DNA of 27,690 nt from Pyrinomonadaceae bacterium (GCA_035628755.1 DASPJG010000542.1:1-27690); one strand, 5' to 3'; positions 7,236 to 26,255 are shown, numbered from the stretch's first letter. Notes: generated from the letters alone by a model not told the origin. Numbers and translations: made by a program.

Positions 7236-7989
7236 ACGCCTGAATGATGGCGTAGGTGCTCAAGTATTTGAGGGGCGTCAGATATTTGTTGACGAGTGAA
7301 AAATCGAATCTTCCTAAAGGCCGCAACAACCCATCGGTGCCCGTCTTCCAGAGGCAATACTTTATGCTTTCCCGCGTCAAACATTCCATGTAATGGAATT
7401 TAACCTCCGGGAACGCGCTTTCGATCAGTGCCAAATCTTCTCCGCTGAGTTCCCCCTCGTCGTCTGTCAACGGGCTGGGGTGGAAGGGAAGTTTCCCATG
7501 AATCCAGCGCATGGGTTTCAGCAGGCAGACAGGTTCTTCGGCGAGGAAGCGACCACCTTCCACTAAGGATTGATGGACTCGCTCTATGACCTTCGCTAGA
7601 TTCATGTGGTGAAGCGCCCGCTTACAGACCACGACATCGAACTTCTCTTCGAACGACATCTCTTCGCAATCCATCACCACCGCGCAGAGATTTTTTTCAA
7701 TGCCCATTTGCCGTGCCAGTTCATTGGTTTGCCCTGAGGCCACGTCGGAAATATCGACGCTGACAACTCGATTGTTGTTTTTCGCCAAAGACACGCCCAC
7801 GGTGTCAACGCCGCCTCCTATTGTCAGAATCTTCTGGCCGCTGAACTTTCTCAAAAGATCGTTGAAGGCATCTTCGCTGTAGGAAGAATTGGTGAAGGAT
7901 TGGCTCCATACGTATTTCTCGTGATTAAGTCCTTCAGCCCGATACGCTTCATTCCAGTATTGCTTCTCTCTGGTCGCTCGATCATTCAT
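7228..7989 (-). CDS. Class I SAM-dependent methyltransferase
   Basis: Motif I KILTIGGG, acidic motif II VVSVDIS, MDCEEM, FDVVVCKRALHHM, LVEGGRFLAEEP. RBS GAGAGG upstream. Confidence 0.85.
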   Translation of the reverse strand: MNDRATREKQYWNEAYRAEGLNHEKYVWSQSFTNSSYSEDAFNDLLRKFSGQKILTIGGGVDTVGVSLAKNNNRVVSVDISDVASGQTNELARQMGIEKNLCAVVMDCEEMSFEEKFDVVVCKRALHHMNLAKVIERVHQSLVEGGRFLAEEPVCLLKPMRWIHGKLPFHPSPLTDDEGELSGEDLALIESAFPEVKFHYMECLTRESIKYCLWKTGTDGLLRPLGRFDFSLVNKYLTPLKYLSTYAIIQAFK

Positions 7990-8006: not shown

Positions 8007-9044
8007 TCACATAAGCATTCCTTCCCGCTGATTGGTGTACCACCTTTTAAATGTTTTGATGTCGAACCACTGAGCGTCGAAATGCTCCACGGCGAACCGC
8101 GCGTTGTTATCTTCCGCGACCGGCATTCCTTTGAGCAAAAATATTTTCCGCCGGGCCGCATGACTTTCCACCAATGTGGAGATGCCGGGTTTTGTAATAA
8201 TGCTCGCGCACTCTCTAAGCAACGGCGCGAGTGTCGGTACGACGCCGTGAACCTGAATCTTCGCATTGTTCCCGAAGCCGTCTTGCAGCTTCTCGTAAGC
8301 TTTCGTATTCTCGGCGCACACGGCATGGATTCTTAAATCTGGCAAAGCACCAGACAGTTTCTCCACCGTCTCGACGATTGGACCCTGCCCCCAGAAGCCA
8401 CAGACGAGCAAGACACTGTTGATGTCTGCCTGAACTTCCGAAATGTCCAGGTATTCCTGTCTGGCCGGGAGATTGATTTTGATGAACCGCACGTGTCGAG
8501 GCATCTCAAACCTGAGCGCGCTGCTCTCGACGGGAGACAGAAACCCATTCAACTGTTCCCAGAACTGATACTTCCATCCTAAATTTTTTCCATACTCGCC
8601 TAGTACTCCCCACACGGAAAAATCCAGTCGCTCCCGCCTTTTCACATTGGCAACCCAGAAGGCCGGGCGATGACTGACGCAGATTACCGTCTTGACGCCG
8701 AGAGTTTCGATCTTCTCGCGCAGGTTTCCCAGATCAGCTGTGTTGAATAGTTTCTCTCTGAGGTACTTGCGGTAGTAAAAAAGCGGGATTTTGTAAACGA
8801 GGTATAAAAGAAAAGGGAAGTTGTTCGATATGTATTTGTACCGTTCGAGGTCTTCCCTGACCACGTCAGGGGAAACGAACTCCTCGATTGGAACATGGTA
8901 CACGGGATGCTTATCTTTCAATCGCTGCCGGATCGCTTCGCCGAGGGTGTACATGCCCCGCCCGACCACCGTGCTGACGATCAGGACGGGCGGCTCAAAG
9001 TGTTCGGATAAATCTTCGACCTCAAAGAATCTTCCGCTTGGCAT
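8007..9044 (-). CDS. GT28/MGDG-synthase-like (UgtP-like) GT-B glycosyltransferase, divergent
   Basis: N-terminal LIVSTVVGRG, VICVSH, LLVCGFWGQG, VCAENTKAYEKL, and C-terminal ASIITKPGISTLVES...E.NN resembling the GT28 DLxITKPGGxTxxE motif. Confidence 0.7.
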   Translation of the reverse strand: MPSGRFFEVEDLSEHFEPPVLIVSTVVGRGMYTLGEAIRQRLKDKHPVYHVPIEEFVSPDVVREDLERYKYISNNFPFLLYLVYKIPLFYYRKYLREKLFNTADLGNLREKIETLGVKTVICVSHRPAFWVANVKRRERLDFSVWGVLGEYGKNLGWKYQFWEQLNGFLSPVESSALRFEMPRHVRFIKINLPARQEYLDISEVQADINSVLLVCGFWGQGPIVETVEKLSGALPDLRIHAVCAENTKAYEKLQDGFGNNAKIQVHGVVPTLAPLLRECASIITKPGISTLVESHAARRKIFLLKGMPVAEDNNARFAVEHFDAQWFDIKTFKRWYTNQREGMLM

Positions 9045-10188
9045 CGTATAAGTAGAGAGCGTTGCACTTACTGCAAATGGGCAGCGGCCCCTCGCGACGC
9101 AACTCTCTGAATCTCGCGTACTCGGGAGAGTTCCAAACGTCCATGACGCTGCTGTCGTTTAAGTTGCCGAGGGTCAAATCAGGATAGAGCGCGCAGGGCG
9201 TGACCGCACCGTCAGGAGTGACATCCATGCGTAGCCATTGCTTATAGCAGAACGTGTTACCCGGCGGCACCTGCGGCGTATCCACATAGGTGTGAATATC
9301 TTCCGGTTCTTTGAGATAACAGGAAACCGGAATCGGCCATTTCTCGCCCTTGATTCTTTCGTACTGGCGTATAAATTCTTCTTGATCGAGGTCGTAAGGG
9401 AGGAGGTATCCCAAATGTGACGTGGGAGTAATCGCAAAATGCTTCTGCATGTAATCTTCGTATTCCCGGGCTTGTTCCTCCGAAACGAACCAGCATAGAT
9501 TTAGTAGAATCCAATCCACGTCCAGCTTGATCATCTCGCGGCAGAACTCATACATGACGCCCACGTTTTCGGGTCTGATCGTGAACTGGATGCCAATATA
9601 CGGAGGCTTCTTGAGCGACTTGAGCAGCTTAATGTTTCTTACGACCCGTTCATAGACGCCTTTACCCCTGAGTTGATCGTTCTCTTTTTTGAGTCCATCC
9701 AGAGACACCAAATAAGTCAGGTAAGGATTGTCGGCGCTGACATCTTTAAAGCGATGCAAGAGAGTGCCGTTGGTGCAGGTAACTGCGAAACAGCGTCTCT
9801 CTCTAAGTGTCTCGGCCAGTCTCTTGAAATTCGAGTAGAGCAAAGGCTCGCCGCCGATGAGAATGAAAGAGGGATGTTGTTTACCTAACTGGGAGAAGAG
9901 ATTCTCGACCACGTTCCAAGAGAGTTCCTCCGTTATCGCTTCGGGCACTTCTTGTTTGCACCAACCCGCGTCTCCCCACTCGTAGCACATCGTGCATCTC
10001 AGGTCGCACTTGTACGTGAGGGTTAACTTATAAACCAGAGGTGCAGGCACCTGATCATCCTTCCCGACGTTCTCTTCGAGCCATTGATAACGGGAAAAGA
10101 ACTTCAGTTTATTGACGATCAAATGTTCGACGTACCGGGGATGCCTCCACGCCAGTTTAGTGAGACCGCTGATTGAGGGAATCGTCAT
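9022..10188 (-). CDS. Radical SAM enzyme with short 4-Cys SPASM/twitch domain
   Basis: CDLRCTMC (CxxxCxxC), GGEPLL, TNGT, VSLDG, and C-terminal CYKQW...DGAVTPC...LGNL...WNS...CSKC. RBS GAGAGGA upstream. Confidence 0.92.
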   Translation of the reverse strand: MTIPSISGLTKLAWRHPRYVEHLIVNKLKFFSRYQWLEENVGKDDQVPAPLVYKLTLTYKCDLRCTMCYEWGDAGWCKQEVPEAITEELSWNVVENLFSQLGKQHPSFILIGGEPLLYSNFKRLAETLRERRCFAVTCTNGTLLHRFKDVSADNPYLTYLVSLDGLKKENDQLRGKGVYERVVRNIKLLKSLKKPPYIGIQFTIRPENVGVMYEFCREMIKLDVDWILLNLCWFVSEEQAREYEDYMQKHFAITPTSHLGYLLPYDLDQEEFIRQYERIKGEKWPIPVSCYLKEPEDIHTYVDTPQVPPGNTFCYKQWLRMDVTPDGAVTPCALYPDLTLGNLNDSSVMDVWNSPEYARFRELRREGPLPICSKCNALYLYDAKRKIL

Positions 10189-10373
10189 AAAAGTCCTCTC
10201 TGCTGATTGCGGGCGGCGTCAACCTGTCTGATGCATGTGGATGGCCTTACCAGACAGAACTCTTTGCTGTTTTCCATTGTCGGCAAGGTAAAGATTTTCC
10301 CGCGTCGGTAAAGAAGATGTTGGATTACCGCTGCATCCGCGCAATGAGTAACCGGAAAAAATATCGCCTTCGG

Positions 10374-11561
10374 CTAAGTCTTTGACTCGTCGAGTTCGTA
10401 GAGGTCGCAACATCTGCTGCAAGAAGGAAAGAGACCATCCTCGCTTAACGACTTCCTGAACTTTCTCATTCCAGAGTCGTTCCATATCTCCGTGAACTTC
10501 TGCTCTCTGACGTTCCCCATCTTGGCCTCTGGAAACCAGGGACAACCGACCACGTCGCCGTTCGGCATCACGACGGCGCGTTTCCAGGGCACGTGACATA
10601 TCTTCTCTCCGAAAACCGACTCCGGGGATTTGAAGTACAAGTCATAATCAAATCCTGTCACCTCATGCTTCGGGTATCTTTTGAACTTAAAAGTCCAGGC
10701 TTTCTCCCTAACTAACTTTTCCTGCTTCGCTAAGGACTGCGAATTTATCGCGGACACATCCCGAAGAAATCCATTCCAGAGCTTGGGCGTGACCCCGAAG
10801 GTCTCCGCAAACCTTGCTTTTGTTCTCTCTAATAATTCCGGGGTCGTGAACATTCCCAATTGAATCTTAAAATAATCAACTTCTAACCCATCCACGACCT
10901 CCGCGGTTTCCAGAATGTAATCGCTGTTCTCAATGGTTACGGTGGTGCACACTTCAATAATGGGGAAGGCACTTTTCAGCTTTTTCTTTGCGCTAACCAG
11001 AAGGTTTATTCCGCGTATGATCCGATTATAGACATCATTTCCTTTGCGAATTTGATTGTTGATTCTCTCCGGCCCATCGAGGCTGGCGATGTAGTAGTCC
11101 AGCCCTGACTTGACGAGAGAGTCCGCTAGTTCTTCGGTCAACAGCGTCGTGTTGCTGTTTAATGCGGTCAATAAATTTCGGTCGGAAGCGAACTCGATTA
11201 TTCTTGGAATATCTTTTCGGAGCAGTGGCTCGCCCCCGAAAAAGTATAGATAGGGTTTCCAACCACTTATCTCTTCAATCAGGTTTTCCCACTGCTCTGT
11301 CGCCATCTCGTCTTTTAAGACTTTACTCTCAACCTCCTTATAACTTCCCTGATCTCCCCATTCCCAGCACTGAACACATCGAAGGTTACACATATTGTTA
11401 ATCTGTATGGTCATCAAAGGAGGTAACGACGAAGCAAAATGTTCTTGCCGGAATCCCTTCGCGGAAGAGAATTTTGTGGTGTATGCCATCTTTAAAAGAG
11501 ACCCTATTTTATAGGGCTCACGTAAGAGGTAATGCCTGAGTCTCTCAAATTCTTTTTGCAT
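10374..11561 (-). CDS. Radical SAM enzyme with short SPASM/twitch domain (paralogue-like to 9022-10188)
   Basis: CNLRCVQC, FGGEPLL, NSNT, ASLDG, and C-terminal CHVPW...NGDVVGC...MGNV...IWN...CSRCC. Confidence 0.92.
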   Translation of the reverse strand: MQKEFERLRHYLLREPYKIGSLLKMAYTTKFSSAKGFRQEHFASSLPPLMTIQINNMCNLRCVQCWEWGDQGSYKEVESKVLKDEMATEQWENLIEEISGWKPYLYFFGGEPLLRKDIPRIIEFASDRNLLTALNSNTTLLTEELADSLVKSGLDYYIASLDGPERINNQIRKGNDVYNRIIRGINLLVSAKKKLKSAFPIIEVCTTVTIENSDYILETAEVVDGLEVDYFKIQLGMFTTPELLERTKARFAETFGVTPKLWNGFLRDVSAINSQSLAKQEKLVREKAWTFKFKRYPKHEVTGFDYDLYFKSPESVFGEKICHVPWKRAVVMPNGDVVGCPWFPEAKMGNVREQKFTEIWNDSGMRKFRKSLSEDGLFPSCSRCCDLYELDESKT

Positions 11562-11909: not shown

Positions 11910-12385
11910 ATTATTTCAGAGCGCAGAGTGTTACCGGCGGCTCTTTCTCAGGCGGCGATCTGAAAGGGCGAAGCGACGAACTTCGTCTGCCCTCGCGCGT
12001 CATTCCCGGCTAATCTTTTAACTTGGCCTTACCTCATCATGTTCACCGCTTCAATGCCTTCCAGTGTTCGTTCCGCCGCGTGAAAACTCTTGAAGCATTG
12101 TGAGGCGCGCACCTCTTTTTTGATGAAGCGGTGATCCTGTTCGATAATATTGTTGAGGTATTTCACACGCCTCAAATGACAATCCGAAGGTAGTGTCTGG
12201 TCAATTTGCGATGTGGTAAACGCCTCCGGATAAGCGGCATTCTTATCTACAGAGATGGAGAACGGGAGTCTGCAATGCTCGGCTCTCATCATCTTCTTAA
12301 AGAATCGTTTTGCTGCGGAAGCGTCGCGTTTCGCACTGAGCATGAACTCGATGGTTTGTCCTTTGAGGTCGAGGCAGTGAACCAC
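11895..12385 (-). mobile_element. IS6-family insertion sequence remnant (3' half of DDE transposase, 5' end lost, premature stop)
   Basis: GQTIEFMLSAKRDASAAKRFF, VDKNAAYP, KYLNNIIEQDHRFIKK, FKSF...TLEGIEAVNMMR*GQVKRL...FQIAA*. The TAA at 12029-12031 replaces the expected Lys and the original stop is at 11948-11950. The N-terminal WRVDETY region is absent or eroded. Confidence 0.9.
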
Positions 12386-12409
12386 TAAGCCGCGGTGATA
12401 TAGGCGGTG

Positions 12410-12700
12410 CCCCGATGTAGGCCGGAACGTCGCGCCACGCGAGTCTGCCCTGCGAAGCGTTGGCGCGTTACTGCCAAGCAGGAGAGTGCCCGTGCCGCCC
12501 GGCAATGGGCTCGCAGCATCGCACTACATCGAGGGAGGTGCATCGCGGCAGTTGCACTGGCGCGGAAACTGTCGGGCATCCTTTACGCGATGTGGCTGAC
12601 GGGACTTCATTCAGGGGCGAGCAGCGCGCGCGCGAACGAGGCACTTCCTGCGCGGGAACCAGCAGGGGTTCTGTGTAAGACACAGTCAGAAAGTGAATAG
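12410..12700 (+). mobile_element. IS110-family transposase C-terminal remnant (frameshifted, 5' part lost)
   Basis: WRV...RQWARSIALHRGRCIAAVALARKLSGILYAMW matches the typical IS110 C-terminus (RRGxxxAxVAxARKLxxILYAMW). Upstream AG...EA-like residues lie in another frame. Confidence 0.75.
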
Positions 12701-12927: not shown

Positions 12928-12943
12928 TGGCACGGGCGTTGCA
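12928..12943 (+). promoter_or_regulatory. sigma54 (-24/-12) promoter of the pilin-chaperone-usher operon
   Basis: TGGCACGGGCGTTGCA is essentially the consensus TGGCACG-N4-TTGCW (GG 12929-12930, GC 12941-12942). It is intergenic and on the same strand as the operon starting at 13162. Confidence 0.85.
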
Positions 12944-13161: not shown

Positions 13162-13764
13162 ATGAATTTCCAGACTCCGGCTCGCTTTCTCGTTATTCTC
13201 GCGGCAATCCTCGTCTCGGCCGGTCAGGCATGGGCGCAGGGTACCTGCTCCAATTGTTCGACGGTCGGCTCTAACCTCACCCTCTCGGCGACGGCCGAAA
13301 CGGCGGTGACGTTGACGATTGCCACCGGTTCCGGCGGCGCATCCGTGATGGACGACGGATCGGGAGCCTTCAGCGTCTCTTTCGGCAACGTCAATGGCCT
13401 CGGAATCGGCACTACCAGCGCTGGCGTGAACGTCAGCACATCGGGGAGCGGCGCAACCTACACGACGCCGATCACCGTCACGCCTACCTTCTCGGGATTT
13501 ACCGGAACCACGGCAACCGTCAAGGTCTATCAGGATTCCGGTACATCCTCCGATAGCCAGACGGCAGCGCGAGAAGGTAGCTCGGCGGTCAACGCCGTCT
13601 CTGTTCCCTCGGTGGCAGGCTCGGCGAACACAGTCAGCGCCTCGGCCGCCAGCGATTCAGGCATTACACGTCATGTCGGCGTCTTTGTCAGCAATGCCAA
13701 CGGCGGCGGCAAGGTGGTTGGCTCGCTCGCTCCGAAATTCATCTACACCGTCACAGTCAACTAA
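13162..13764 (+). CDS. Secreted pilin/fimbrial-subunit-like protein (Ser/Thr-rich, beta-rich)
   Basis: RBS AAGGAG at 13145-13150. Sec signal peptide ending in AWA|Q, N-terminal alternating strand NLTLSATAETAVTLTI, C-terminal strand FIYTVTVN. 56 of 175 mature residues are Ser/Thr (hand count). First gene of a chaperone/usher-like operon. Confidence 0.7.
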   Translation: MNFQTPARFLVILAAILVSAGQAWAQGTCSNCSTVGSNLTLSATAETAVTLTIATGSGGASVMDDGSGAFSVSFGNVNGLGIGTTSAGVNVSTSGSGATYTTPITVTPTFSGFTGTTATVKVYQDSGTSSDSQTAAREGSSAVNAVSVPSVAGSANTVSASAASDSGITRHVGVFVSNANGGGKVVGSLAPKFIYTVTVN

Positions 13765-13768
13765 AGCC

Positions 13769-13804
13769 GTGCCGGGAGGGGGCCCCTCACCTCCCTCCCG
13801 GCAC
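13769..13804 (+). other. Strong GC-rich intergenic stem-loop without U-tract (mRNA stabiliser or attenuator candidate)
   Basis: GTGCCGGGAGGG (13769-13780) pairs perfectly with CCCTCCCGGCAC (13793-13804). It starts 4 nt after the pilin stop and no poly-T follows. Confidence 0.7.
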
Positions 13805-13849
13805 TCACACTCAACCGAACACCCCTCGATAACGACCGTAAGAATCCAC

Positions 13850-14689
13850 ATGATCACCCGGCAAAGACTCCTGAACCTGCTCGCCCTGCTCTGCCTGGCG
13901 CTCATCATCGTCCACGGCGGGGCGCGTGCATCTGCACAATCACTCGGCATCTCGCCAGCCTTCGTAGATGCGAAGGTCAAGAGCGGCGCAACCTACATCA
14001 AGGACTACACGATCACGAATAATTCCGGTGTGCGATTGCGCGTCCGTTGCTCCACAGGCGACTACTGGTACGACGAGCAGACGAACGCCCGCGTAGACGG
14101 TAGACCCGGCACGTTCCCACATTCTGCTTCTTCATGGGTGCAGTTCTCGCCGGCCGAGCTTATCGTCGAACCGCACGGCGCAGCCGTGATGAAGGCTGTC
14201 ATCAGCGTCCCGCAGGCGGCGAGCGGAGGCTTCTATACTCTCCCGATCTTCGACATACAGGCGGCCGACAGTTCCGGCGGAGCGACCCGTGAAGGTACGG
14301 CATCGGCTTCCATGTCCGTAAACTTTCGCGGCCTTTTGATGCTCAGCACAATCGGCAACTCCGAATACAACGTCGAGATCATGAGTGGCCATGTTGCATC
14401 GCCAACCCCCGCCGCGCCGCTCAAGATTTTGCTCAACGTGCGCAACCGCAGCACGGCGCATGTGAACCTGCGCGGGCAGTTCGCTGTCCTGAACGCGACG
14501 GGCGGCTTTGCCGGTCGCGGCAAAATTGACGAGCAGCGATTCATGCCGGGGCAACGCAACGAACTCGGAGCCGCATGGGCTAATGATCTTGCGCCGGGTC
14601 GCTATACCGCCATCGTGACGCTGACATACGAACGCGCGGGGTTGGAACCCGCCTCACTGGCCTATGAAATGACTTTCGAGGTCAAGTAG
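13850..14689 (+). CDS. Periplasmic two-Ig-domain pilus chaperone-like protein (PapD/EcpB-like or DUF916/DUF3324-like)
   Basis: Signal peptide MITRQRLLNLLALLCLALIIVHGGARASA|Q. Domain 1 has ISPA..., TITNNS, SASSWVQFSPAELIVEP, ISVP...SGGFY. Domain 2 has VRNRSTAHVNLRG, MPGQR, LAPGRYTAIVTLTY. Start trimmed from 13673 to the ATG at 13850. Confidence 0.7.
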   Translation: MITRQRLLNLLALLCLALIIVHGGARASAQSLGISPAFVDAKVKSGATYIKDYTITNNSGVRLRVRCSTGDYWYDEQTNARVDGRPGTFPHSASSWVQFSPAELIVEPHGAAVMKAVISVPQAASGGFYTLPIFDIQAADSSGGATREGTASASMSVNFRGLLMLSTIGNSEYNVEIMSGHVASPTPAAPLKILLNVRNRSTAHVNLRGQFAVLNATGGFAGRGKIDEQRFMPGQRNELGAAWANDLAPGRYTAIVTLTYERAGLEPASLAYEMTFEVK

Positions 14690-14752
14690 GGTGAGGGGGA
14701 GACGTACAGTTCGCCTGTTGACGCACGCGCTCCAATCTCATTGCGTCCGTCC

Positions 14753-17653
14753 ATGAAACACGCGAGATCAAAACTTCCCTGTACCCGGAACACCTCAACG
14801 CCGAAGCGAGTGCGGTCACGTCTTCAAGCTTACTGCGTGTTCTTACTCGTCTTGGTGCTTGCCGCCCACTGGCTGCCAACGGAGGGAAGTGCAACGCTCG
14901 CTCCGGGCGGACAATCCGAGGCACTCGGACGGCATAGTTACGCTTTGCGCGTAGTGCTCTTCGTGCGCGGTTCACGCGCGGTTCCCTTCGACGCCACCGT
15001 GAACGGCGTCACCGTCGTCAATCCTGAGTTCGTGATGGCGCAGGTAAGTGGCGACCGTACTGTTATCTTTAACGGCATCGCCGTGGGCGAGGCGTTGGTC
15101 TTTGTCACAGGCGCAAGCGGGACGCGCCGCACGGTGGTCGTCGAGGTACGAAGCCCTCCCACCCCTACACTCGCAGAAGTCCGCGCGCGCGCAGATCGTC
15201 GCCGTCGCGAGACGACCCGCCCCACGGGCACATACATGCTCTCCTTTTCGCCCTCCCTGGACGGTGGGCTTGCGCTACTGCGACAGACTTTTGACTTCAC
15301 GCGCAAGCTTGCGAGTAACCGTGCGCTTCGCGTTACCGCCGACGTGTTCAGGTTCTTCGGGCAGGGCGAGCGCGCGCTCACACAGCCAGCCGCCACACTC
15401 GGCCTCGACCGCGTGTCGCTCGGCACGGACTCGGCGAACTGGCGTTTCGACCTGCTCGACAGCGAGTTGAACGTTTCGCCCCTCAGCTTCAACGGCTATA
15501 CAATGCGCGGCCTGCACCTTGCTTCGTCCGAAGCCTCGCCCCGGCGCGGTCTCGAACTCTTCGCAGGCATGGCGCGCCCCGCGCTCACGCTCTTCAACAA
15601 CTCGGAGGGTTATCTCGGCGGGGCAATGCTGCCGCTCTCAAGCGGGGCGACATGGCGCGTGCGCGCGGGATTTCTGGCCGTTGCGCCGCGTCGGCAAACA
15701 GATCAGACCGCGCGTGCGGGCGAAGCGGAAGGCGGCCTCGTCTGGCATGCGGACGCGCGGTTCACGCCGGACGCGCGCACGACCGTCGAGGGTGAAGCCG
15801 CTTACGCCCGCAACGGCTTTTCATGGCGCGCCCGCACCGAACTGCGGCGCGGCGATTTTAACTTTTATGCCGAGACGCTGCGCTTCGACCGCCGTTCGCC
15901 CCTTGCTGCACTTGGCGCGCAGGCGGGTGGGCGCAGGATGGATGCCTTCGCAGTCGCATGGAATCCTCATTCGCGCATCTCTGCGAACTTCAGTTACAAC
16001 CGCGCCGCCAATCGTTTCGTCTCACGGGCGCAGACCGTGACGCTCGACAACTCGGCGCTCTCCACCGGGCTTAATCTTCAACTCACGGCAGGCTCGCGCT
16101 TGAGTCTGCGCTACTCCGGGCAGGAGGTCGAAACCGGCGTGGGAATAACGTCGCTCCTGCGGCTGGATAGTCGTAATTTTGCCGCAACTTACAATGCCCG
16201 TTTCAATCGTCGCTGGTCGAACGAGTTTGAGGCCGGATTGACGACGAGTAGGGAACTGGCGGCGGGATCACAGGTCGAGCGCGGCTTGAGTCTGCGTGAA
16301 GAACTACGACTATCTGGTAACAGGTGGTCAGCGACCGGCTTTCTCAACTATCGTAGCAACATTCCTTCGTTGACGGGTCTCGTCGTCAGCAACCCGCAAT
16401 TGCTCCCGCCCGCGTTACGCAGTGCTTACGAGGCAGACCCCGCGCGCTTTCTCGCCAGCAACCGCGACGCGCTCCCGTCGCTGCTCGGCGGCGTGGTGCT
16501 GCCCGAAACGCGCAGCACCACTCTCGGCCTCAGGCTCCGAGCCGCCTTCGCACGCTACCAGTTCACTGCCGAGCCACGCTATGACTCGGGCGAGGTGCTC
16601 GCGCATGAGCAACGCAGGTTCACCACGGCCTTCAACGCCATCGCCCGGCTCGACGCGGCTCATTCCATCCGCGTCAGTGGCGCGCGTTCCTTCGCCTTTG
16701 ACGGCGGACACAGCCGGACGACGTTCACCCTCTCCTTCATTCACCGCTTCGGCGTTCCGGGCGGCAGCTTCAATCTCGCCAAATTATTTAAACTTAATGA
16801 AGGACGGATCGAGGGGCGTGCGTTCTTCGACCTGGACGCCGACGGGCTGGATGACTCTGAAGAGCCGGGCGTCGCAGGCGTGGCCGTCCAACTCGACGGC
16901 CGACGAAGCGTTACCACGGACGCGCGCGGGCGATATAAATTCTCCTCGCTCCCGCCGGGCGAACACGTAGTTGCGCTCGTCTCGGACAAACTCGGCGTCG
17001 GCTTCCGCGCGAGCGCCGCGTCGGAACAACTTGTGAGCGTCGGGGCGCGGCAGACCGTCGCGGTCAATTTCGGTCTCTCGAACTTCGGTTCAATCGGAGG
17101 GCGCGTCTTCAATGACCTCTTCCTGACGGGCGCGACGGACGCCGCCGGGTCGCCCGGCCTACGCGGCGTGCATGTCCTGCTGCGGGGAGCGAAGTCTGTT
17201 TCGTTGACGACCGACGAGAGCGGCCTTTACGAGTTCAACAACCTAGCGCCGGGAAGCTACACCCTTGAGATCGATCCGATGTCTTTGCCCGCCGATTTTC
17301 GGCTGCCCGCGCGGCTCTCGTGGCCTGTCACCGTCTCTCCCCTGCAACGCTTCTTCATGGATATTCCGCTCGCCGCACAGCGCGCCATCTCCGGCATAGT
17401 CTTCCTCGACCACGATGGCAATGGCCTATTCGATGCCGCTCACGATGCGCAGCTCGCCGGCGCACGCGTGGCGGCGGGAAAGGCGGAAACGATCACCGAT
17501 GGAAACGGCTCTTATCTCTTACGCGGACTTCCAGCCGGACGAATCACCATCCGCGTGACACGTCGGGGTGGCGGCGAGAGCCGCGAGATAAGCCTCGACC
17601 TCGGCCCCGATCCTACTTTCAGGCAAGGCCAGAACATAGGATTCGTGCGTTAA
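14753..17653 (+). CDS. Atypical outer-membrane usher-like protein: N-terminal pilus-assembly Ig domain, beta-barrel, three SdrD-B/carboxypeptidase-regulatory-like repeats
   Basis: Signal-like hydrophobic stretch, then VNGVTVVNPEF...GIAVGEALVFVTG...RRTVVVEV (CpaC/secretin N-domain-like). RFDLLDS...FNGYTMRGLHLAS resembles a usher motif. Many amphipathic strands follow, then three G.I.G..F.D repeats containing TTD..G.Y.F..L.PG. ATG at 14753 (TTG at 14741 in the ORF track). Confidence 0.7.
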   Translation: MKHARSKLPCTRNTSTPKRVRSRLQAYCVFLLVLVLAAHWLPTEGSATLAPGGQSEALGRHSYALRVVLFVRGSRAVPFDATVNGVTVVNPEFVMAQVSGDRTVIFNGIAVGEALVFVTGASGTRRTVVVEVRSPPTPTLAEVRARADRRRRETTRPTGTYMLSFSPSLDGGLALLRQTFDFTRKLASNRALRVTADVFRFFGQGERALTQPAATLGLDRVSLGTDSANWRFDLLDSELNVSPLSFNGYTMRGLHLASSEASPRRGLELFAGMARPALTLFNNSEGYLGGAMLPLSSGATWRVRAGFLAVAPRRQTDQTARAGEAEGGLVWHADARFTPDARTTVEGEAAYARNGFSWRARTELRRGDFNFYAETLRFDRRSPLAALGAQAGGRRMDAFAVAWNPHSRISANFSYNRAANRFVSRAQTVTLDNSALSTGLNLQLTAGSRLSLRYSGQEVETGVGITSLLRLDSRNFAATYNARFNRRWSNEFEAGLTTSRELAAGSQVERGLSLREELRLSGNRWSATGFLNYRSNIPSLTGLVVSNPQLLPPALRSAYEADPARFLASNRDALPSLLGGVVLPETRSTTLGLRLRAAFARYQFTAEPRYDSGEVLAHEQRRFTTAFNAIARLDAAHSIRVSGARSFAFDGGHSRTTFTLSFIHRFGVPGGSFNLAKLFKLNEGRIEGRAFFDLDADGLDDSEEPGVAGVAVQLDGRRSVTTDARGRYKFSSLPPGEHVVALVSDKLGVGFRASAASEQLVSVGARQTVAVNFGLSNFGSIGGRVFNDLFLTGATDAAGSPGLRGVHVLLRGAKSVSLTTDESGLYEFNNLAPGSYTLEIDPMSLPADFRLPARLSWPVTVSPLQRFFMDIPLAAQRAISGIVFLDHDGNGLFDAAHDAQLAGARVAAGKAETITDGNGSYLLRGLPAGRITIRVTRRGGGESREISLDLGPDPTFRQGQNIGFVR

Positions 17654-17708: not shown

Positions 17709-19694
17709 TCAGAATGAAAAGATGGTTGCGAACTCGGAACGGATGTTGTGCGTTTCGCGCGAAGGGATGCCGCGGAAGAGCGGCAGACTGCCTTGCGCCA
17801 GAATCGAGTTGTTCGCGGCGCGCGTGCGAAACAAAGACTGCTCATAGGCGAACGTGACGAAGGCGTTCGCCCTGTAGTGAAGACTTCCCATCAGCACGTC
17901 GCTCTTGGCGCGTCCGCCGAAACGTCGCACGTCGCGTGCCGTGGCCTGGTCGTATCCGTAGTGCAGGTAGGCCGTCCATCCCGCGTGTCGTCCCGCGGGA
18001 GCGGCATCGAAGAGGCGAGAGAGCGGGAAACCCAAATTGACGAACCCGCCCTGCCCGCGCACCGGGCGTTGCGGCGCGAGCGCGGGGATACCATCGAGAA
18101 GACCGAAGACCACCATCGAAGAGCCGTCGATGGACGGCGCGGACGCTGTCGCCGTCAGCCCGGCGGTGTCATTGAAGGTGGAGAACAACTGCCCGCCGAA
18201 ATAGAAGCGCAGGTCTGCGCCGTTATAGTACTTCCCGATGACGGTCAGGAAATCCGTCGGCAGTTGAATCTCGGCGGTGTAGCCGTAGCGTTGACTCCCG
18301 ACTTCAGCGCCGGTCGGGAAGGCGACTCTGAAAGCGGCCGGCACATCCGCCGCGCGGACGATAGCCTTGCGCTCGCCTTGCGTGAAACTGACGATGAGTT
18401 GCGCGGGCACGACGCCCGGTGAGCGGTCGAGTTGGAACTGCGTAACGAAGCGACCCTGAATTTCCGGACGGTTAGAATCTGCTCCCTGCCGCTCGCCGAA
18501 GCCCAGTTGATCGCCGGCGTTGGCGGGCGTGTTGCCGAAGGCGGGGAGGACAAGCGCAATCTCAGGCTGGAATTTCAAGGCGCGTCCGCCGCCCGCATTG
18601 TAGTTAAGGCCAAAGCGAAATTGCGGCGCGCGCTCATAGATGTTGCCGTAACCGACGTGAAGGGCTGTCGTCTCAACCGTGTTCGGGACGGTCGAGGAGC
18701 CGAACGGCGTCCAGTCCTGACCGAAGAGGGCGAAGCCGGTGGTCTTCTCCGTCAGGGTGCGATCAATGCGCATCCAGGCGAGACGCAGGCTGGGCTGGCT
18801 GGAGCGAATCGAAGGGATGCTGCGGTTGTTGGCGCGTGTGAAGTCGCCCTCGAAGTCCAGTTCGACGCGTCCTGTGATAACCGTCTTCGGTGCGGGGTCG
18901 AGCCACTCGAAGTTCGCGCCGATGCGGAAGGCGCGCGCCTTGAGATGAAACTCCGGCGAGCCGTTCGGCCCGGTGTCCCCGGAGAACAGGGGGAGAGGGA
19001 AGTCGTTGCCGCCCGGCGACGATGTGTCATAGACGAGGCTCGCCTTAAAGAAGCCATACGGCTTGACGCGCGCCCCGGAGCCGAGTTTGATGTCGGGCAA
19101 TAAGCCTTCTCGTTTCGGCGGCTCGACTTGCAGCAGACGGAGGGGGGCAACCGCCGCCACCACGGCAGGCAGAGCAGGCGGCTTCGACTGAGGGCCGGAA
19201 ATTTGGTGCTGCCGGTTTTGCCCGTCCGGTGCGACAGTTGCCGTCTCCTTCGGCTCGGAAGGAGCCACACCCGCAGTAGGCGTCACCAGAGGCGTTGCTC
19301 TGATCGCTTCAAATTCCACGGGAGAGATGATTCCCTTATCGCGCAGCAAGGACGCAAGGCGGTCGCGCTGCTCAACCGGGGTGCGCCCGCTCGCCACGAC
19401 GCGCCCTTCCTCGACGCTGATTACCCCTTTTGAAACCAGCACACGCACGAGCGGGTCTGCGATGTCGGCATCGGCGAGCGAGTTTGGCCTGCTTGATGGC
19501 TCGGAGGTTGGGGCGTGTCTCTTTTCGCCGGTCGAGCTTGTGCCGTTGCTGCCTACTCCGGCAAGCGGGGCTATGTGATCGGTGCCAGTCTTACCGTCCA
19601 CTCGTGACCCTTGCCCGTATGATGCTTCAACGGTGCAGACGAGCAGAAGTAGAGTGAGTGAAAAGCGCTGTAAGTTTAGGCGCATGGGGATCAT
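17709..19694 (-). CDS. Outer-membrane porin, DcaP-like, with long N-terminal periplasmic extension
   Basis: Signal peptide, VKPYGFFKASLVYD, ARAFRIGANF, GRVELDFEG, LRLAWMRI, FGQDWTPF, alternating beta-strands, terminal Phe (ATIFSF). Confidence 0.7.
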   Translation of the reverse strand: MIPMRLNLQRFSLTLLLLVCTVEASYGQGSRVDGKTGTDHIAPLAGVGSNGTSSTGEKRHAPTSEPSSRPNSLADADIADPLVRVLVSKGVISVEEGRVVASGRTPVEQRDRLASLLRDKGIISPVEFEAIRATPLVTPTAGVAPSEPKETATVAPDGQNRQHQISGPQSKPPALPAVVAAVAPLRLLQVEPPKREGLLPDIKLGSGARVKPYGFFKASLVYDTSSPGGNDFPLPLFSGDTGPNGSPEFHLKARAFRIGANFEWLDPAPKTVITGRVELDFEGDFTRANNRSIPSIRSSQPSLRLAWMRIDRTLTEKTTGFALFGQDWTPFGSSTVPNTVETTALHVGYGNIYERAPQFRFGLNYNAGGGRALKFQPEIALVLPAFGNTPANAGDQLGFGERQGADSNRPEIQGRFVTQFQLDRSPGVVPAQLIVSFTQGERKAIVRAADVPAAFRVAFPTGAEVGSQRYGYTAEIQLPTDFLTVIGKYYNGADLRFYFGGQLFSTFNDTAGLTATASAPSIDGSSMVVFGLLDGIPALAPQRPVRGQGGFVNLGFPLSRLFDAAPAGRHAGWTAYLHYGYDQATARDVRRFGGRAKSDVLMGSLHYRANAFVTFAYEQSLFRTRAANNSILAQGSLPLFRGIPSRETHNIRSEFATIFSF

Positions 19695-21452: not shown

Positions 21453-22844
21453 TCAATCTCCCAACTGATATCGTTTAATCATGCGCTCAATCGTTTTGCG
21501 ATCCACCCCCAACAGACGCGCCGCTGCCTGCTTGTTACCCTTGGTGTGTGCTAACACTTTTGCGACGTAATGTTTTTCCCATTCGGCCAGCGTCGGCCAC
21601 TCTTCGATCAACCGCGCGGTCGCCCTATTGTTATCCCCGCTTATATCCGTCAAATCGGCCTCCTGTTGATAGCGTAAACGCTCAGGCAGGTCGTTGGGGT
21701 TGATGTAGCGATCACATAGCGCGGCGGCGCGCACCACTGTATTCTCCAATTCACGAATGTTTCCGGGCCACGAGTATGCCTCCAGAATCTGCATAGCTTC
21801 GGGGGAAAAACCGAGCGGCAGCATTCCTTCATCACGGACGCGCTCGACGAAATGATAGGATAGGGCGCGGATGTCGTCTCGTCGTTCGCGCAGGGGCGGC
21901 AGCCGTAAGCTCACGGCGTTCAACCTGTAGAGCAGGTCTTGGCGAAAGCGTCCGCCCTTCACTTCTTCTTCGACGTTACGGTTGCTGGCGGCAATGACTC
22001 TCACATTTACTTCGGTTGTTTTATTCGCGCCGACTCGCCGAATCTCACCCTCTTGCAAAGTTCTTAAGAGTTTCACCTGAAAGGCCTGTGAAGTTTCCGT
22101 TATTTCGTCGAGAAAGATGGTTCCTCCGTGCGCCTCTTCAAACAGCCCGGGGCGATCTCTCTCGGCTCCGGTGAAGGAGCCGCGCATGTGGCCGAAGAGT
22201 TCGGATTCGATCAACTCGGCAGGCATCGCACCGCAATTGACCGTGACGAAAGGGTGTGCGGCGCGACGGCTTCGCAGGTGAATGGCCCGCGCGACAACCT
22301 CTTTACCTGTCCCTGACTCGCCGGTAATCAGCACCGGGAGATTCGTGGGGGCGATTCTCCCGACCAGCTTCATCATTTCAAGAAAAACCGCGCTCTGACC
22401 GATCAGAGCGATGTCGGATTTATATGCGCGCGAGTTGCTTCCATCGTCAGGGTTGGGCAGGCACTTTTGCTTTCCCAAACGTCTGCGGAGGTTCCCCGAT
22501 AACGTGAGCACTTCGTTAACACTGAACGGTTTGAGGAGATAGTCATAGGCTCCGAGAGCCGTCGCGTCGAGCGCGCCCGCTGCGGAGCCGTATCCCGTCA
22601 TCAGCACAATCTGCGTATGAGGCTGTTCTTTCAGGAAATGCCGCAGCACCGCGAAGCCGTCAGCCCCTCCCAGCATTACGTCGCAGAGGATCATCCCCCA
22701 GCTTTCTTCATCCGACATCTCGAAGACATGCTCTGCGTTTTCGGCCTCGTTGACGCGCCAGCCATCCTCGCGCAGAACTTCGGCTATAAAACCGCGAACT
22801 TGCGGGTCATCATCAACTACCAGGGCTGTGAAGTTTTCAGACAT
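21453..22844 (-). CDS. sigma54-dependent response regulator (NtrC/AtoC family; REC-AAA+-Fis HTH)
   Basis: REC (VVDDD, LCDVML, YLLKP), Walker A GESGTGKE, ESELFGHMRGSFTGA, Walker B IFLDEI, FRQDLLYRL, WPGNIREL, and HTH GNKQAAARLLGVDRKT. Confidence 0.95.
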   Translation of the reverse strand: MSENFTALVVDDDPQVRGFIAEVLREDGWRVNEAENAEHVFEMSDEESWGMILCDVMLGGADGFAVLRHFLKEQPHTQIVLMTGYGSAAGALDATALGAYDYLLKPFSVNEVLTLSGNLRRRLGKQKCLPNPDDGSNSRAYKSDIALIGQSAVFLEMMKLVGRIAPTNLPVLITGESGTGKEVVARAIHLRSRRAAHPFVTVNCGAMPAELIESELFGHMRGSFTGAERDRPGLFEEAHGGTIFLDEITETSQAFQVKLLRTLQEGEIRRVGANKTTEVNVRVIAASNRNVEEEVKGGRFRQDLLYRLNAVSLRLPPLRERRDDIRALSYHFVERVRDEGMLPLGFSPEAMQILEAYSWPGNIRELENTVVRAAALCDRYINPNDLPERLRYQQEADLTDISGDNNRATARLIEEWPTLAEWEKHYVAKVLAHTKGNKQAAARLLGVDRKTIERMIKRYQLGD

Positions 22845-22985: not shown

Positions 22986-25900
22986 CTAGGTCGAATGTAA
23001 TATGCAATCACGATTATCTGTGATTGACGCTGACGAATTGAGGGCAGCCCGTATCTTCTGTGTCAGAGTCTCGGGCGTAAATGGCTTCTCTATGAAATTG
23101 ATGCCTTCATTCAAAACCCCGTGATGAATGATAGCCTCATGCGTATAGCCGGACATGAAGAGAATACCGATGTCCGGTCGCAACTGCTTGACCTGATCGG
23201 CTAATGCCCGCCCGCTTATGCGCGGCATGACTACATCCGTCAGCAGCAGATGAATCATCCCTTGATGCTGGCGGCATAAGCCAAGCGCGTTTTCTCCGTC
23301 GGCTGCCTCCAACACGGTGTAACCGGCCGAAGTCAGAATGACGCGAGCGATGGCTCTTACCATATCATCATCCTCTACGAGCAAGATGGTTTCTGTGCCC
23401 GGCGCGAGGGACTTCGTATTTTCACTCAATTGAATTTTCTCGGCTTGCCCTTCCACCTGCGGCAAATAAATCTTGAAGGTCGTGCCCAGCCCGACCTCGC
23501 TATAAACCCAGATATTTCCCTGACTCTGCTTAACAATACCGTACACGGTCGAAAGCCCCAGCCCGGTTCCTTTACCTTGTTCTTTGGTGGTGAAGAAAGG
23601 CTCGAAGATGCGCGCCCGTGTGGACTCATCCATGCCGGAGCCGTTATCGCTGACGGCCAGCATCACATATGTGCCGGGCAGGACGGTAACGTGCTGGCGC
23701 GTGTACTCTTCATCCAGATAGACATCCGCGGTCTGGATAGTGAGTTTGCCTCCATCAGGCATGGCATCTCTGGCGTTGACCACGAGGTTCATCAGGATTT
23801 GCTGAATCTGCCCAGGATCGGCTTTAACTCTTCCCAACGCCGGCGTCAGGTCAAAGAGCAGTTCCAGGTCTTCGCCGATCATGCGGCGCAGCATTTTGTC
23901 CATTTCCGAGACGATGCCATTGAGGTCGAGCACTCTCGGTTGCAAAACCTGCTTACGACTGAAAGCCAGCAATTGATGGGTTAAGGCCGCAGCGCGCTCG
24001 GCAGCTCTTTTGATCTCCGTGATGTTGACATGCAGGTGGTCTTCCGGCTTCAGACGGCGCAGGCTTAAATCACTGTATCCGGTAATTGCCGTGAGCAGAT
24101 TGTTGAAATCGTGAGCCACTCCGCCCGCCAGACGACCGACAGCTTCCATCTTCTGCGATTGCTGAAACTGGACGACGCGCTCCTTTTCCTGTTCAAGAAG
24201 CTGCTCGTTCTCAATAGCGTTGGCCGCCAGATTAGCCGCCAAACGCATCGCCGTGACATGTTCATTGCCATAAGCCGCGAGGTCATAACTTTGTATCTCG
24301 ATCACGCCGACCACCCGGCCCATGACGATCATCGGCACAACCATTGCCGAGCGTGGCGTGCGTGCATCGTCAATGTTGCCGCCACTTTGGGCGGTGGCCT
24401 GACGGCCTTCGAGAGTTTCTTGATAATCGTTGTGGACAATGATCCCGCCCGTCGTAATGGCTTGCCCGACCAGATCGTCTCCGAGCGGGAGGGTCTCCAA
24501 TTTAGAGGCATTACCCTCCGCTCCATCCGACCATAAATAGACGATGCGGCGTGCTGATTTAGCTTCACTATAGAGAGATAGGAAGAGCGATGAGCAGGGC
24601 ATGGAGGCGAGGGTGAAGGCGGACAAGGCGCGATAGATGGTTTCCAGATCGCGCGCCGTGCCAAACGTCTGTCCCAAAGATGCGACCCTTTCAAGCAACC
24701 GTTCGTATTCGCGGATGGCGCGGCGATCCGCCTCGCGCAGAGCTTCTTCGGCGAGCTTGCGCTCCGTAAAGTCGCGTGCGATCGCGGAAGCCCCCGTGAT
24801 TCTGCCGGTGGCATCTCGAATGGGAGACACGGTTAGAGAGACATGGATCAACTGCCCGTCTTTTTTACTCCGAACGGTCTGATAGAGCGAGATGCCACGA
24901 CCCGACCGAACACTTTCGAGAATCTCTTTTAACTCCTCGGTGCGCTCCGGCGGGACAATGATTGAGATATGCTTACCGATTGCCTCTTCGGCGGTATAAC
25001 CGTAAATTTTTTCCGCGCCCTTGTTCCAGTTGGTAATAACTCCATCCAGAGCCTTGCCGATGATCGCATCTTCGGAAGATTCGACGAGGAAGGCTAACTG
25101 GGAGCGCATCATCTCGGAATGTTTCTGCTCGGTGACATCCCGGATGATAAGTTGGACGGCGGACTCTCCCTGATAATTGGTTAAAATGCTCGTCGCGTTA
25201 ATATCTATGACGCGCCCGTCAAGCCGCACCAGTCGCAGGTCGCTGACCGGGCTTATCTCTCTTCTCTCCATCGTTCCGCGGAGTTGCTCGGAAATTATCC
25301 GCCGGTCGTCGGGATGCACTAGCTTCCAGATTGAGTCGCCGATTATTTCTTCCGCACTGTCGGCTCCGAAGAGCTTGATGCTGGCGGCATTGCCGTAAAC
25401 GAATTGTTCTCTGCAACTGATAACTATCGCGTCCGGGCATAGTTCGACGAGGCAGCGATAGCGTTCTTCGCTCTCGCGCAGCGCCGCCTCGGCTCGTTTG
25501 CGCTCCGTAATGTCTGTCACCATACCGAGCGCGCCGACGAATTTTCCCGTCGCATCCAGTATTGAATTAGCAGAGACTATCGTACAGAGAGTCGTGCCAT
25601 CCTTACGCCGAAACCCGGTTTCGCGCTGTTCGGCTGTCCCTTGTTTTCGCCGCTCGAAGGCATGCGTCGCTTCAACCCGTGCCTCACTGTCCATAAAATC
25701 AAAGACGGACTTGCCGAGCATCTCTTCGACCGAATAGCCGAGCATCTCGGACATCCGCTGGTTGATATAGTTCGTGCGCGCCTCCGCATCAATCATCCAG
25801 ATGCCCTCTCTGGAAGTTTCAACGATCTGGCGATACTTCTTCTCACTCGCACGCAAGGCGGCAAGTGTTTTAGAACGTTCGATAGTGTAGCGAATGGTAC

Positions 25901-26255
25901 GTTCGAGCAACGGCCTGTCTATTTGACCTTTAATCAGGTAGTCAAACGCCCCTGCCTTCATCGCCTTAACATCTACATCATGATCTTCCTGAGCCGTCAG
26001 TAAGATCGCCGGAACGCGGTAGTCATGTGCCCGTGCTTCGTGTAGAAGATCAACCCCGGTATGTTCACCGAGGCAATAATCAATGAGACAGATATCGTGC
26101 CCGTTTTGTTTTATCAGTTTCAGTGCCTCTTGGTACGTCGCCGCCCAAGTCAACTCAAATCTACTAGACTCGATTTCCGAGAGTAAATCGCGGGTTAATA
26201 TATAGTCATCCTCATCATCCTCGACGAGCAGAACTTTGATTACGTTGTTATACAT
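22986..26255 (-). CDS. Hybrid sensor histidine kinase REC-PAS-PAS-PAS-GAF-HisKA-HATPase-REC
   Basis: N-terminal REC, three PAS/PAC modules ending in DITERK/DVTEQK/DFTERK, a GAF (VVPMIVMGRVVGVIEI), H-box LAGGVAHDFNNLL, NLVVNARDAM, DNGSGM, FFTTKEQGKGTGLGL, and a C-terminal REC (LLTDVVMP). Confidence 0.95.
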   Translation of the reverse strand: MYNNVIKVLLVEDDEDDYILTRDLLSEIESSRFELTWAATYQEALKLIKQNGHDICLIDYCLGEHTGVDLLHEARAHDYRVPAILLTAQEDHDVDVKAMKAGAFDYLIKGQIDRPLLERTIRYTIERSKTLAALRASEKKYRQIVETSREGIWMIDAEARTNYINQRMSEMLGYSVEEMLGKSVFDFMDSEARVEATHAFERRKQGTAEQRETGFRRKDGTTLCTIVSANSILDATGKFVGALGMVTDITERKRAEAALRESEERYRCLVELCPDAIVISCREQFVYGNAASIKLFGADSAEEIIGDSIWKLVHPDDRRIISEQLRGTMERREISPVSDLRLVRLDGRVIDINATSILTNYQGESAVQLIIRDVTEQKHSEMMRSQLAFLVESSEDAIIGKALDGVITNWNKGAEKIYGYTAEEAIGKHISIIVPPERTEELKEILESVRSGRGISLYQTVRSKKDGQLIHVSLTVSPIRDATGRITGASAIARDFTERKLAEEALREADRRAIREYERLLERVASLGQTFGTARDLETIYRALSAFTLASMPCSSLFLSLYSEAKSARRIVYLWSDGAEGNASKLETLPLGDDLVGQAITTGGIIVHNDYQETLEGRQATAQSGGNIDDARTPRSAMVVPMIVMGRVVGVIEIQSYDLAAYGNEHVTAMRLAANLAANAIENEQLLEQEKERVVQFQQSQKMEAVGRLAGGVAHDFNNLLTAITGYSDLSLRRLKPEDHLHVNITEIKRAAERAAALTHQLLAFSRKQVLQPRVLDLNGIVSEMDKMLRRMIGEDLELLFDLTPALGRVKADPGQIQQILMNLVVNARDAMPDGGKLTIQTADVYLDEEYTRQHVTVLPGTYVMLAVSDNGSGMDESTRARIFEPFFTTKEQGKGTGLGLSTVYGIVKQSQGNIWVYSEVGLGTTFKIYLPQVEGQAEKIQLSENTKSLAPGTETILLVEDDDMVRAIARVILTSAGYTVLEAADGENALGLCRQHQGMIHLLLTDVVMPRISGRALADQVKQLRPDIGILFMSGYTHEAIIHHGVLNEGINFIEKPFTPETLTQKIRAALNSSASITDNRDCILHST

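Follow-up and report, generated by a model that had tools for sequence, protein, structure and literature searches.

Chaperone-usher pili are the standard example of fibres assembled across the outer membrane without ATP, and are defined by two protein families, PapD_N and Usher. Systems of the Caf1 (F1 antigen) type have three structural genes, with one polymerising subunit and no tip adhesin. WxL pili form a second point of reference: DUF916/DUF3324 proteins were shown experimentally to be chaperones, anchored in the membrane, whose donor-strand complementation primes the WxL pilins (with a C-terminal membrane anchor in 96.7% of the WxL chaperones), tip-less variants are common among WxL clusters, and the system is reported to be confined to Bacillota, its chaperones being disjoint from the PapD_N chaperones (bioRxiv 10.64898/2026.10.17.759780). 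Here we describe a three-gene operon on a contig of 27,690 nucleotides from a Pyrinomonadaceae bacterium (GCA_035628755.1, DASPJG010000542.1:1-27690; this whole stretch is called the window in the following). The host genome is a soil metagenome-assembled genome (MAG) that is 86% complete and consists of 836 contigs. The operon probably encodes a divergent chaperone-usher-type fibre system that works by donor-strand exchange and lies outside the classical families. This reading rests on a chaperone related to EcpB and to WxL-interacting proteins (WxLIP), a large protein whose structural ranking is led by ushers, a pilin-like subunit, and a widely kept gene order. The features of the operon are as follows.

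13162-17653, plus strand: three-gene operon in the order subunit, chaperone-like gene, gene of the large barrel protein
13162..13764, plus strand: fibre subunit (pilin-like) of 200 amino acids (aa), with signal peptide, N-terminal extension and beta-sandwich core
Subunit residues about 27-47: putative donor strand SNLTLSATAET within the loose N-terminal extension
13850..14689, plus strand: periplasmic chaperone-like protein of 279 aa, with signal peptide and without membrane anchor
14753..17653, plus strand: usher-like outer-membrane protein of 966 aa, with an alternative TTG start at 14741
14945..15151, plus strand: N-terminal periplasmic beta domain of the secretin-N type (T2SS-T3SS_pil_N, Pfam PF13629)
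15224..16750, plus strand: central beta-barrel of about 26 strands (residues 158-666), from the DSSP string of the AlphaFold2 (AF2) model
16802..17650, plus strand: three C-terminal beta-sandwich domains of the SdrD_B / CarboxypepD_reg type, at the position of the usher C-terminal domains CTD1 and CTD2

The original prediction, made from the DNA sequence, had described a compact operon of a secreted beta-rich subunit, a periplasmic protein and a large outer-membrane protein. This operon is present, with two starts corrected. Gene 2 starts at the ATG at 13850 and not at the listed 13673, which overlaps gene 1; the ATG is preferred because the resulting 279 aa correspond to the length of more than 100 homologues and include a typical signal peptide. 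For gene 3 the ATG at 14753 is preferred over the TTG, since the length of 966 aa agrees with the homologues, including the closest one. Hydropathy profiles of all three operon proteins contain a single hydrophobic segment each, which is N-terminal, and none at the C-terminus.

Compared with the E. coli common pilus (EcpA/EcpB/EcpC), the locus follows the same operon logic of subunit, chaperone and large outer-membrane protein, and its putative chaperone is likewise soluble and periplasmic and is remotely homologous to EcpB. It differs in that the large protein is unlike EcpC and the subunit unlike EcpA in sequence, in the lack of an EcpD-type tip adhesin and of a second chaperone, and in the presence of a secretin-type N-domain, three SdrD_B-type C-domains and a plausible sigma54 control. 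The Fim and Pap pili resemble the locus in the modelled overall build of the large protein, with its N-domain in the periplasm, a barrel that has about 24-26 strands and beta-sandwiches at the C-terminus, as well as in a pilin-like core with an N-terminal extension, in the extension-less subunit found in related loci, and in a hairpin after the major subunit gene. Their families PF00577, PF00345 and PF00419 are, however, unmatched here, and FimC and FimD are without profile similarity; the Fim/Pap ushers also have 24 strands (about 26 in our model), a plug, which is not recognised here, and two C-domains instead of three. The WxL pili (pilin ElrD, DUF916/DUF3324 chaperone ElrE) are alike in that the profile of the chaperone family matches EfmWxLIP1, and in the proposed chaperone-primed polymerisation of small subunits by donor-strand exchange. 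In contrast to WxL pili, the chaperone described here is without a C-terminal anchor, a WxL domain and an LPxTG or sortase step are both missing, the locus includes an outer-membrane barrel protein, and the host is a diderm acidobacterium. The gene layout is that of the Caf1 type, whereas Caf1M and Caf1A are ordinary members of PapD_N and Usher and the window proteins are neither. Finally, the N-domain of the large protein belongs to the same Pfam family, T2SS-T3SS_pil_N, as that of the Tad/Flp secretins (RcpA/CpaC), and relatives of the large protein share AMIN domains with PilQ secretins; unlike the Tad/Flp secretins the protein has no secretin domain and is a single-chain barrel, not a multimeric ring. 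Neither Pfam nor NCBIfam has a family that covers the system, and our literature searches found no description of this diderm family and nothing relevant on an acidobacterial or 'usher-like' system, in agreement with the earlier suggestion that it is possibly undescribed.

A survey of the triad, as proposed together with the original prediction, finds the order of subunit gene or genes, chaperone-like gene, and a gene combining N-domain, barrel and SdrD_B-type C-domains in at least 12 loci (L001, L002, L003, L037, L034, L049, L050, L051, L010/L011, as well as two loci without DNA). The triad is kept down to 20-30% identity. Homologues of the large protein form 56 clusters of common architecture, down to 37% identity, and in every readable context (L001, L002, a 37%-identity locus, L003, another locus, and L037) two genes lie in front of theirs, one for about 190-200 aa and one for about 280 aa. 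More distant relatives of the chaperone (20-31% identity) are found in the same arrangement in L010/L011, L034, L035, L049, L050 and L051. The neighbours in L010/L011 are confirmed by hhalign, with a probability of 98.1% for the subunit and 98.9% for the large protein, the latter including N-domain and barrel; the barrel protein of L034 has a Cu_amine_oxidN1-like N-domain. Locus L035 (G346:C20:76000-95000) is an expanded variant with two chaperone-like genes and several subunit-type genes (about 230-275 aa, no Pfam match) on one strand, and a 1074-aa barrel protein with an AMIN N-domain on the other strand; a ClpB-like AAA+ gene adjoins. The recurrence of this order across distant loci indicates that the three-gene unit is real and widespread. 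That genes of unrelated secreted proteins merely came to lie together by chance, or that the grouping is an annotation artefact, could be suspected from the lack of a diagnostic Pfam family in all three proteins, and is refuted by synteny: the order is kept in all these loci, and the three genes lie tightly spaced on a single strand behind one promoter. We therefore regard it as highly improbable.

Taxonomically named homologues derive from MAGs of Pyrinomonadaceae and Blastocatellia (Acidobacteriota), and the chaperone cluster of L049 has members from MAGs labelled Deltaproteobacteria. Of 201 genomes sampled from the class, 20 (about 10%) contain the chaperone family, and these represent 13 of 63 genera. 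A scan with the large protein as a single sequence retrieves two close Pyrinomonadaceae relatives only. A survey of 300 other Acidobacteriota genomes with the barrel profile gave no match, and the same search missed the divergent system in G211; either the narrow barrel family is rare in the phylum, or the first-look filter is blind to divergent barrels. Near-identical DNA is contained in metagenomes from soil, biocrust and moss. Short contigs of a soil metatranscriptome (X25) match stretches of each of the three genes at 85-97% identity (window 13354-16771), which weakly suggests that relatives transcribe the operon in soil, as DNA carry-over is possible.

The product of the second gene links the locus to known pilus chaperones. 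Scans against Pfam and NCBIfam give no match for this protein, the Pfam models WxLIP_PGBD (PF06030) and WxLIP_HBD (PF11797) included, and none of its more than 160 full-length homologues contains a Pfam domain. In an exhaustive profile search more than 5000 clusters (at 50% identity) are found at an E-value of 1e-3 or better, 1208 of them at 1e-10 or better. The superfamily includes tandem-duplicated forms, many of which, about 550 aa long, turn up in the search of representatives. One such gene, of 568 aa, is found in L051 (7001-8707), where the tandem duplication places two modules in one polypeptide. A broad profile, built from 50 distant members with 19-31% identity to the window protein, matches two informative PDB entries: EcpB of the E. 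coli common pilus (5.7e-6) and the WxL-interacting protein EfmWxLIP1 of Enterococcus faecium (2.7e-5). The direct hhalign comparison of EcpB with the chaperone profile reaches a probability of 95.3% (E 2.1e-8) over 164 columns that span both domains, and aligns the EcpB strand ...ASARIGTILVV... with ...SVNFRGLLMLS... of the window protein. WxLIP_PGBD has sub-threshold matches in 10 of 51 distant members and WxLIP_HBD in one, while PapD_N (PF00345) matches none of the 51. The neighbours listed by the protein atlas include clusters named PapD-type chaperone, DUF916 and WxLIP, which we take as leads only. The C-terminus (...YEMTFEVK) is beta-strand-like and has no membrane helix. Judged by these profile comparisons, the protein is a soluble remote homologue of EcpB and of the WxL-interacting chaperones, and appears to be about equally distant from both groups. 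The chaperone role that had been assigned to the middle protein is thereby supported by remote homology to one branch of the chaperone-usher chaperones, that of EcpB. We note that the survey of WxL systems screened at Pfam gathering thresholds, which the family described here does not reach (bioRxiv 10.64898/2026.10.17.759780).

The subunit encoded by the first gene has a signal peptide (residues 1-26, ending AWA|QG), and its mature part consists of 32% Ser+Thr, 26% Gly+Ala and 7% charged residues. Pfam and NCBIfam contain no matching family (Pfam searched at E up to 1, and including Fimbrial, SCPU and WxL, PF13731). The AF2 model has a mean predicted local distance difference test (pLDDT) value of 84; a beta-sandwich core (residues 48-200, above 90), which ends with G-x7-Y-T-V-T-V-N, is preceded by a loose segment (residues 26-47, at 50-69). 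In a Foldseek search with this model nearly all of the top 50 structures are chaperone-usher pilins, namely CfaB, FimF/G/A/I, Caf1, PapA/E, CsuA/B, CS20, CupB6 and CupE. A relation to the TLP-1 fibril from pond water (9IKJ/9IKK) is not supported, as these entries appear neither in the top 50 nor in the profile search with the subunit. The protein atlas lists a WxL cluster only as a weak feature neighbour (score 0.91, 150 shared features). An alignment of 38 homologues retains both ends of the molecule: an extension S-x-L-x-h-S/T-A-T-x-x-T-A that precedes the first core strand, and the C-terminal strand G-x7-Y-T-h-x-h. A CxxC in the mature N-terminus had been considered as a further family feature; it is restricted to the closest clade, with GPSVTS and similar sequences elsewhere.

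A second class of paralogues begins exactly at the first core strand and is therefore without the extension; in the close clade these proteins have a Cys pair. They are encoded by the second gene of four-gene loci, for example L003 7001-7567, and the succession of a first gene with a long N-terminus and a second gene with a short one is also found in L034, L050 and L051. Most related loci contain such a second subunit gene whose product is without the N-terminal extension. Tip subunits of chaperone-usher pili accept a strand and cannot donate one, and the extension-less protein is a candidate tip or cap subunit. These paralogues, recognised from alignments, constitute the strongest indirect argument for donor-strand polymerisation. 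As had been stated before, the window contains no second pilin or tip gene, and neither does the assembled, 86%-complete genome. The further claim that this defines a minimal class without tip does not hold, as single-subunit systems of the Caf1 type are known. Since the only subunit here is donor-bearing, and most relatives have a second one, the locus is a reduced variant, laid out like Caf1, rather than a minimal class of its own.

The same subunit could instead belong to a module for surface display or anchoring that forms no polymerising pilus: the chaperone would escort a monomeric beta-sandwich protein, which the barrel would export and hold at the cell surface. Such an arrangement is akin to the 'static platform' once proposed for WxL clusters and would suit a homology to WxLIP that is as strong as that to EcpB, a locus with one subunit and no tip, and a Ser/Thr-rich, uncharged subunit similar to glycosylated proteins of the surface-layer type. 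It is hard to reconcile with a conserved extension outside the folded core, and with paralogues that miss exactly this extension, unless strands are donated. For the WxL clusters themselves the static platform has been revised to polymerisation by donor-strand exchange (bioRxiv 10.64898/2026.10.17.759780). We consider a display module unlikely.

The large protein is usher-like in the architecture of its model and outside the usher family by sequence. The AF2 model, which was built with 34 homologues and has a mean pLDDT of 79, consists of a beta domain (65-133), a helix (140-154), the strands of the barrel region (158-666), which enclose a conserved helical insert (540-577), and beta-sandwiches (684-966). 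The N-terminal domain matches T2SS-T3SS_pil_N with an E-value of 8e-6 (25.9 bits against a cut-off of 23) and has a weak profile match to the N-region of the Tad secretin RcpA (residues 38-111). In relatives it is exchanged for AMIN or Cu_amine_oxidN1-like domains, so that this position is filled across the family by varying modules, of kinds that elsewhere characterise the N-termini of secretins. A secretin domain is not found by Pfam in the large protein, the rest of which models as a single-chain barrel. The C-terminal domains match SdrD_B (6.7e-28) and CarboxypepD_reg (6.9e-22), with three stretches each. Compared with the PDB by Foldseek, full-length FimD and PapC ushers rank first, with E-values of 4e-16 to 1e-10 over about 820 columns and low template modelling (TM) scores of 0.28-0.47. 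Next in rank are TonB-dependent receptors and LptD (1e-8 to 1e-6), eight orders of magnitude behind the ushers when full-length chains are compared. The usher CTD1-2 weakly matches C-domains 2-3 of the large protein (hhalign probability 27%, E 7e-4). A differently built usher had been predicted, and the protein is indeed constructed in another way than classical ushers, yet no structures match it better than FimD and PapC. The 'usher-like motif' on which that prediction drew, MRGxHLAS..RG, resembles FRGAQLASDD..RG of FimD at a similar depth in the barrel and is visible by eye; it was dropped, as the focused hhalign comparison yields a probability of 0.6% and the whole profiles are unsupportive.

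Several results weigh against a machine of the chaperone-usher type. For the large protein, hmmscan at E up to 1 detects no Usher (PF00577), PapC_N or PapC_C domain; hhalign with FimD, with EcpC and with a profile of 10 ushers detects no similarity to the usher barrel; and no plug domain is identifiable from the secondary-structure string of the model. When the barrel is compared by itself, FimD (3ohn, 1.5e-8, TM 0.46) and PapC (3.4e-7) are hardly better than BtuB (2.5e-8, TM 0.40), hence the ranking of ushers rests largely on the flanking beta-sandwiches and the shared domain order. The chaperone profile does not match FimC (hhalign probability 7%), and the wide chaperone family has no invariant basic residue, so that an anchor of the Arg8/Lys112 type cannot be mapped. 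The pilin matches of the subunit are individually non-significant, with E-values of 0.03 or more, and comparison with EcpA and with PDB chains by sequence gives no link to any solved pilin. The Usher family is likewise absent from the precomputed Pfam domains of the 56 large-protein homologues, and neither Usher nor PapD_N has a match in the whole genome, whereas the controls, E. coli and Deinococcus, do match. The Deinococcus control, which matches Usher and PapD_N (archaic class), also renders the earlier statement that chaperone-usher pili are proteobacterial too strong.

In the light of these results the large protein could serve as a channel for a substrate or as an uptake barrel (TonB-independent, or LptD/TBDT-like), with the small proteins as accessory binding proteins, and no fibre would be formed. 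The similar barrel-only scores of ushers, TonB-dependent receptors and LptD, as well as the missing sequence link to ushers, agree with a transport barrel, and CarboxypepD_reg domains are also present in SusC-type transporters. However, in SusC these domains are N-terminal, whereas the CarboxypepD_reg/SdrD_B domains of the large protein are C-terminal, and Pfam detects neither a TonB box nor a plug domain. Moreover, a transport function leaves no place for the homology of the chaperone to EcpB and for pilin-like neighbours, nor for the one or two pilin-like genes that strictly accompany the barrel gene even in distant lineages. A transporter therefore appears even less likely than a display module, and the divergent chaperone-usher-type system remains our preferred reading.

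For this fibre system we infer assembly by donor-strand exchange. The subunit would be exported by Sec with an incomplete Ig-like fold, and the chaperone would cap the open groove with a strand of its domain 1, possibly the segment aligned to the EcpB strand (...SVNFRGLLMLST...). The chaperone-subunit complex would dock on the periplasmic domains of the barrel protein, where the N-terminal strand of an incoming subunit (SNLTLSATA) would displace the chaperone strand, which constitutes the donor-strand exchange. The growing homopolymer would thread out through the barrel and require no ATP. In this genome the resulting fibre would be a single-subunit polymer without tip, as in the Caf1 type. 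The operon would be transcribed from a sigma54 promoter under the action of a linked NtrC-type regulator, a hybrid kinase and genes of cyclic diguanylate (c-di-GMP) metabolism, and a hairpin after the subunit gene would yield an excess of subunit over machinery. The corresponding regulatory features are listed below.

12928..12943, plus strand: sigma54-type -24/-12 element TGGCACGGGCGTTGCA, 219 nt upstream of the subunit ATG
13769..13804, plus strand: intergenic stem-loop after the subunit gene, with a 14-bp G+C stem and no T-run
21453..22844, minus strand: NtrC-type response regulator and sigma54 activator (Pfam Response_reg, Sigma54_activat and HTH_8)
22986..26255, minus strand: hybrid PAS/GAF histidine kinase (Pfam)

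The element TGGCACGGGCGTTGCA is a perfect sigma54 -24/-12 element and the sole site of the window within one mismatch of TGGCACGNNNNTTGCW; a second sigma54 promoter, which had been proposed at 1717-1732, is not within this limit. The probability of one site at this stringency by chance is about 0.2 per window, and support for the element therefore comes from its conservation in related loci. A GG-N10-GC element is located upstream of the major subunit gene at a distance of 176 nt in L001, 193 nt in L002, 176 nt in L003 and 157 nt in L037, and L007 has one upstream of the barrel gene. Genes of sigma54 activators adjoin the triad in L001, L002 and L003. L001 also has a similar PAS kinase beside the triad, and L037 a 1140-aa open reading frame (ORF) at the same position. 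In the window, the opposite-strand genes downstream of the operon encode a GGDEF protein, the NtrC-type sigma54 activator, the PAS/GAF hybrid kinase and a REC-GGDEF protein. Going by this linkage, the NtrC-type regulator is a candidate cognate activator of the operon, and the hybrid kinase a candidate sensor upstream of it. No sigma54 activators are seen beside the triad in the distant loci L049-L051, and sigma54 control would hence be a trait of this clade. The predicted sigma54 control of the operon is thus plausible and conserved within the clade, where elements and activators are kept.

The hairpin that had been noted after the first gene is confirmed, with a folding free energy of -32 kcal/mol and a z-score of -3.9; none of 200 shuffled sequences folds as well. 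In each of the five loci that were folded (the window, L001, L002, L037 and L003), a long hairpin comes after the gene of the major subunit, with z-scores of -2.1 to -3.9. These hairpins are non-homologous in sequence between loci, and the hairpin of L003 precedes the second subunit gene. We consider the hairpin a putative element of mRNA stabilisation or attenuation, through which the proportion of subunit to machinery would be set.

The surroundings of the operon contain further genes. Directly upstream of the promoter region lies a fragment of an IS240/IS6-type DDE transposase (12029-12505, minus strand). The G+C content climbs from about 0.50 to 0.60-0.65 over 13-20 kb, a stretch that covers the triad and a convergent ORF, and this block may be an acquired insertion. 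The convergent ORF (17709-19694, minus strand) encodes a secreted protein of 661 aa, called a porin in the original prediction, that ends with ...FSF and matches nothing in Pfam or NCBIfam. It is absent beside the triad in L001, L002, L003 and L037 and is probably not part of the fibre system. Farther upstream, two tandem radical SAM/SPASM enzymes (9022-11561, minus strand) adjoin a class I methyltransferase (7228-7989, minus strand), with no relation to the fibre operon seen. The window also contains a GT-C glycosyltransferase gene, of interest in view of the Ser/Thr-rich subunit.

The 'minimal' layout is not the novelty of this locus; what sets it apart are parts unrecognised by standard annotation and a chaperone that links EcpB and WxLIP. 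The locus and the larger family would extend the chaperone-usher mechanism to machines that are missed by current models. More tentatively, and with slightly less than even confidence, we propose that diderms possess a third, widespread and as yet unnamed lineage of fibre machines working by donor-strand exchange, of which this system is one branch, with a soluble chaperone between PapD/EcpB and WxLIP, and an 'usher' with secretin-type N-modules that is either independent of PF00577 or diverged beyond recognition. [quoted passage not shown] With its secretin-type N-domain and without a recognisable plug, a pore of the usher kind would reveal what an usher really requires. For the Acidobacteriota, which are abundant in soil and biocrust and poorly studied, the system would be a first candidate for an adhesive fibre, and sigma54, the NtrC-type regulator and the c-di-GMP enzymes would provide a regulatory handle on it.

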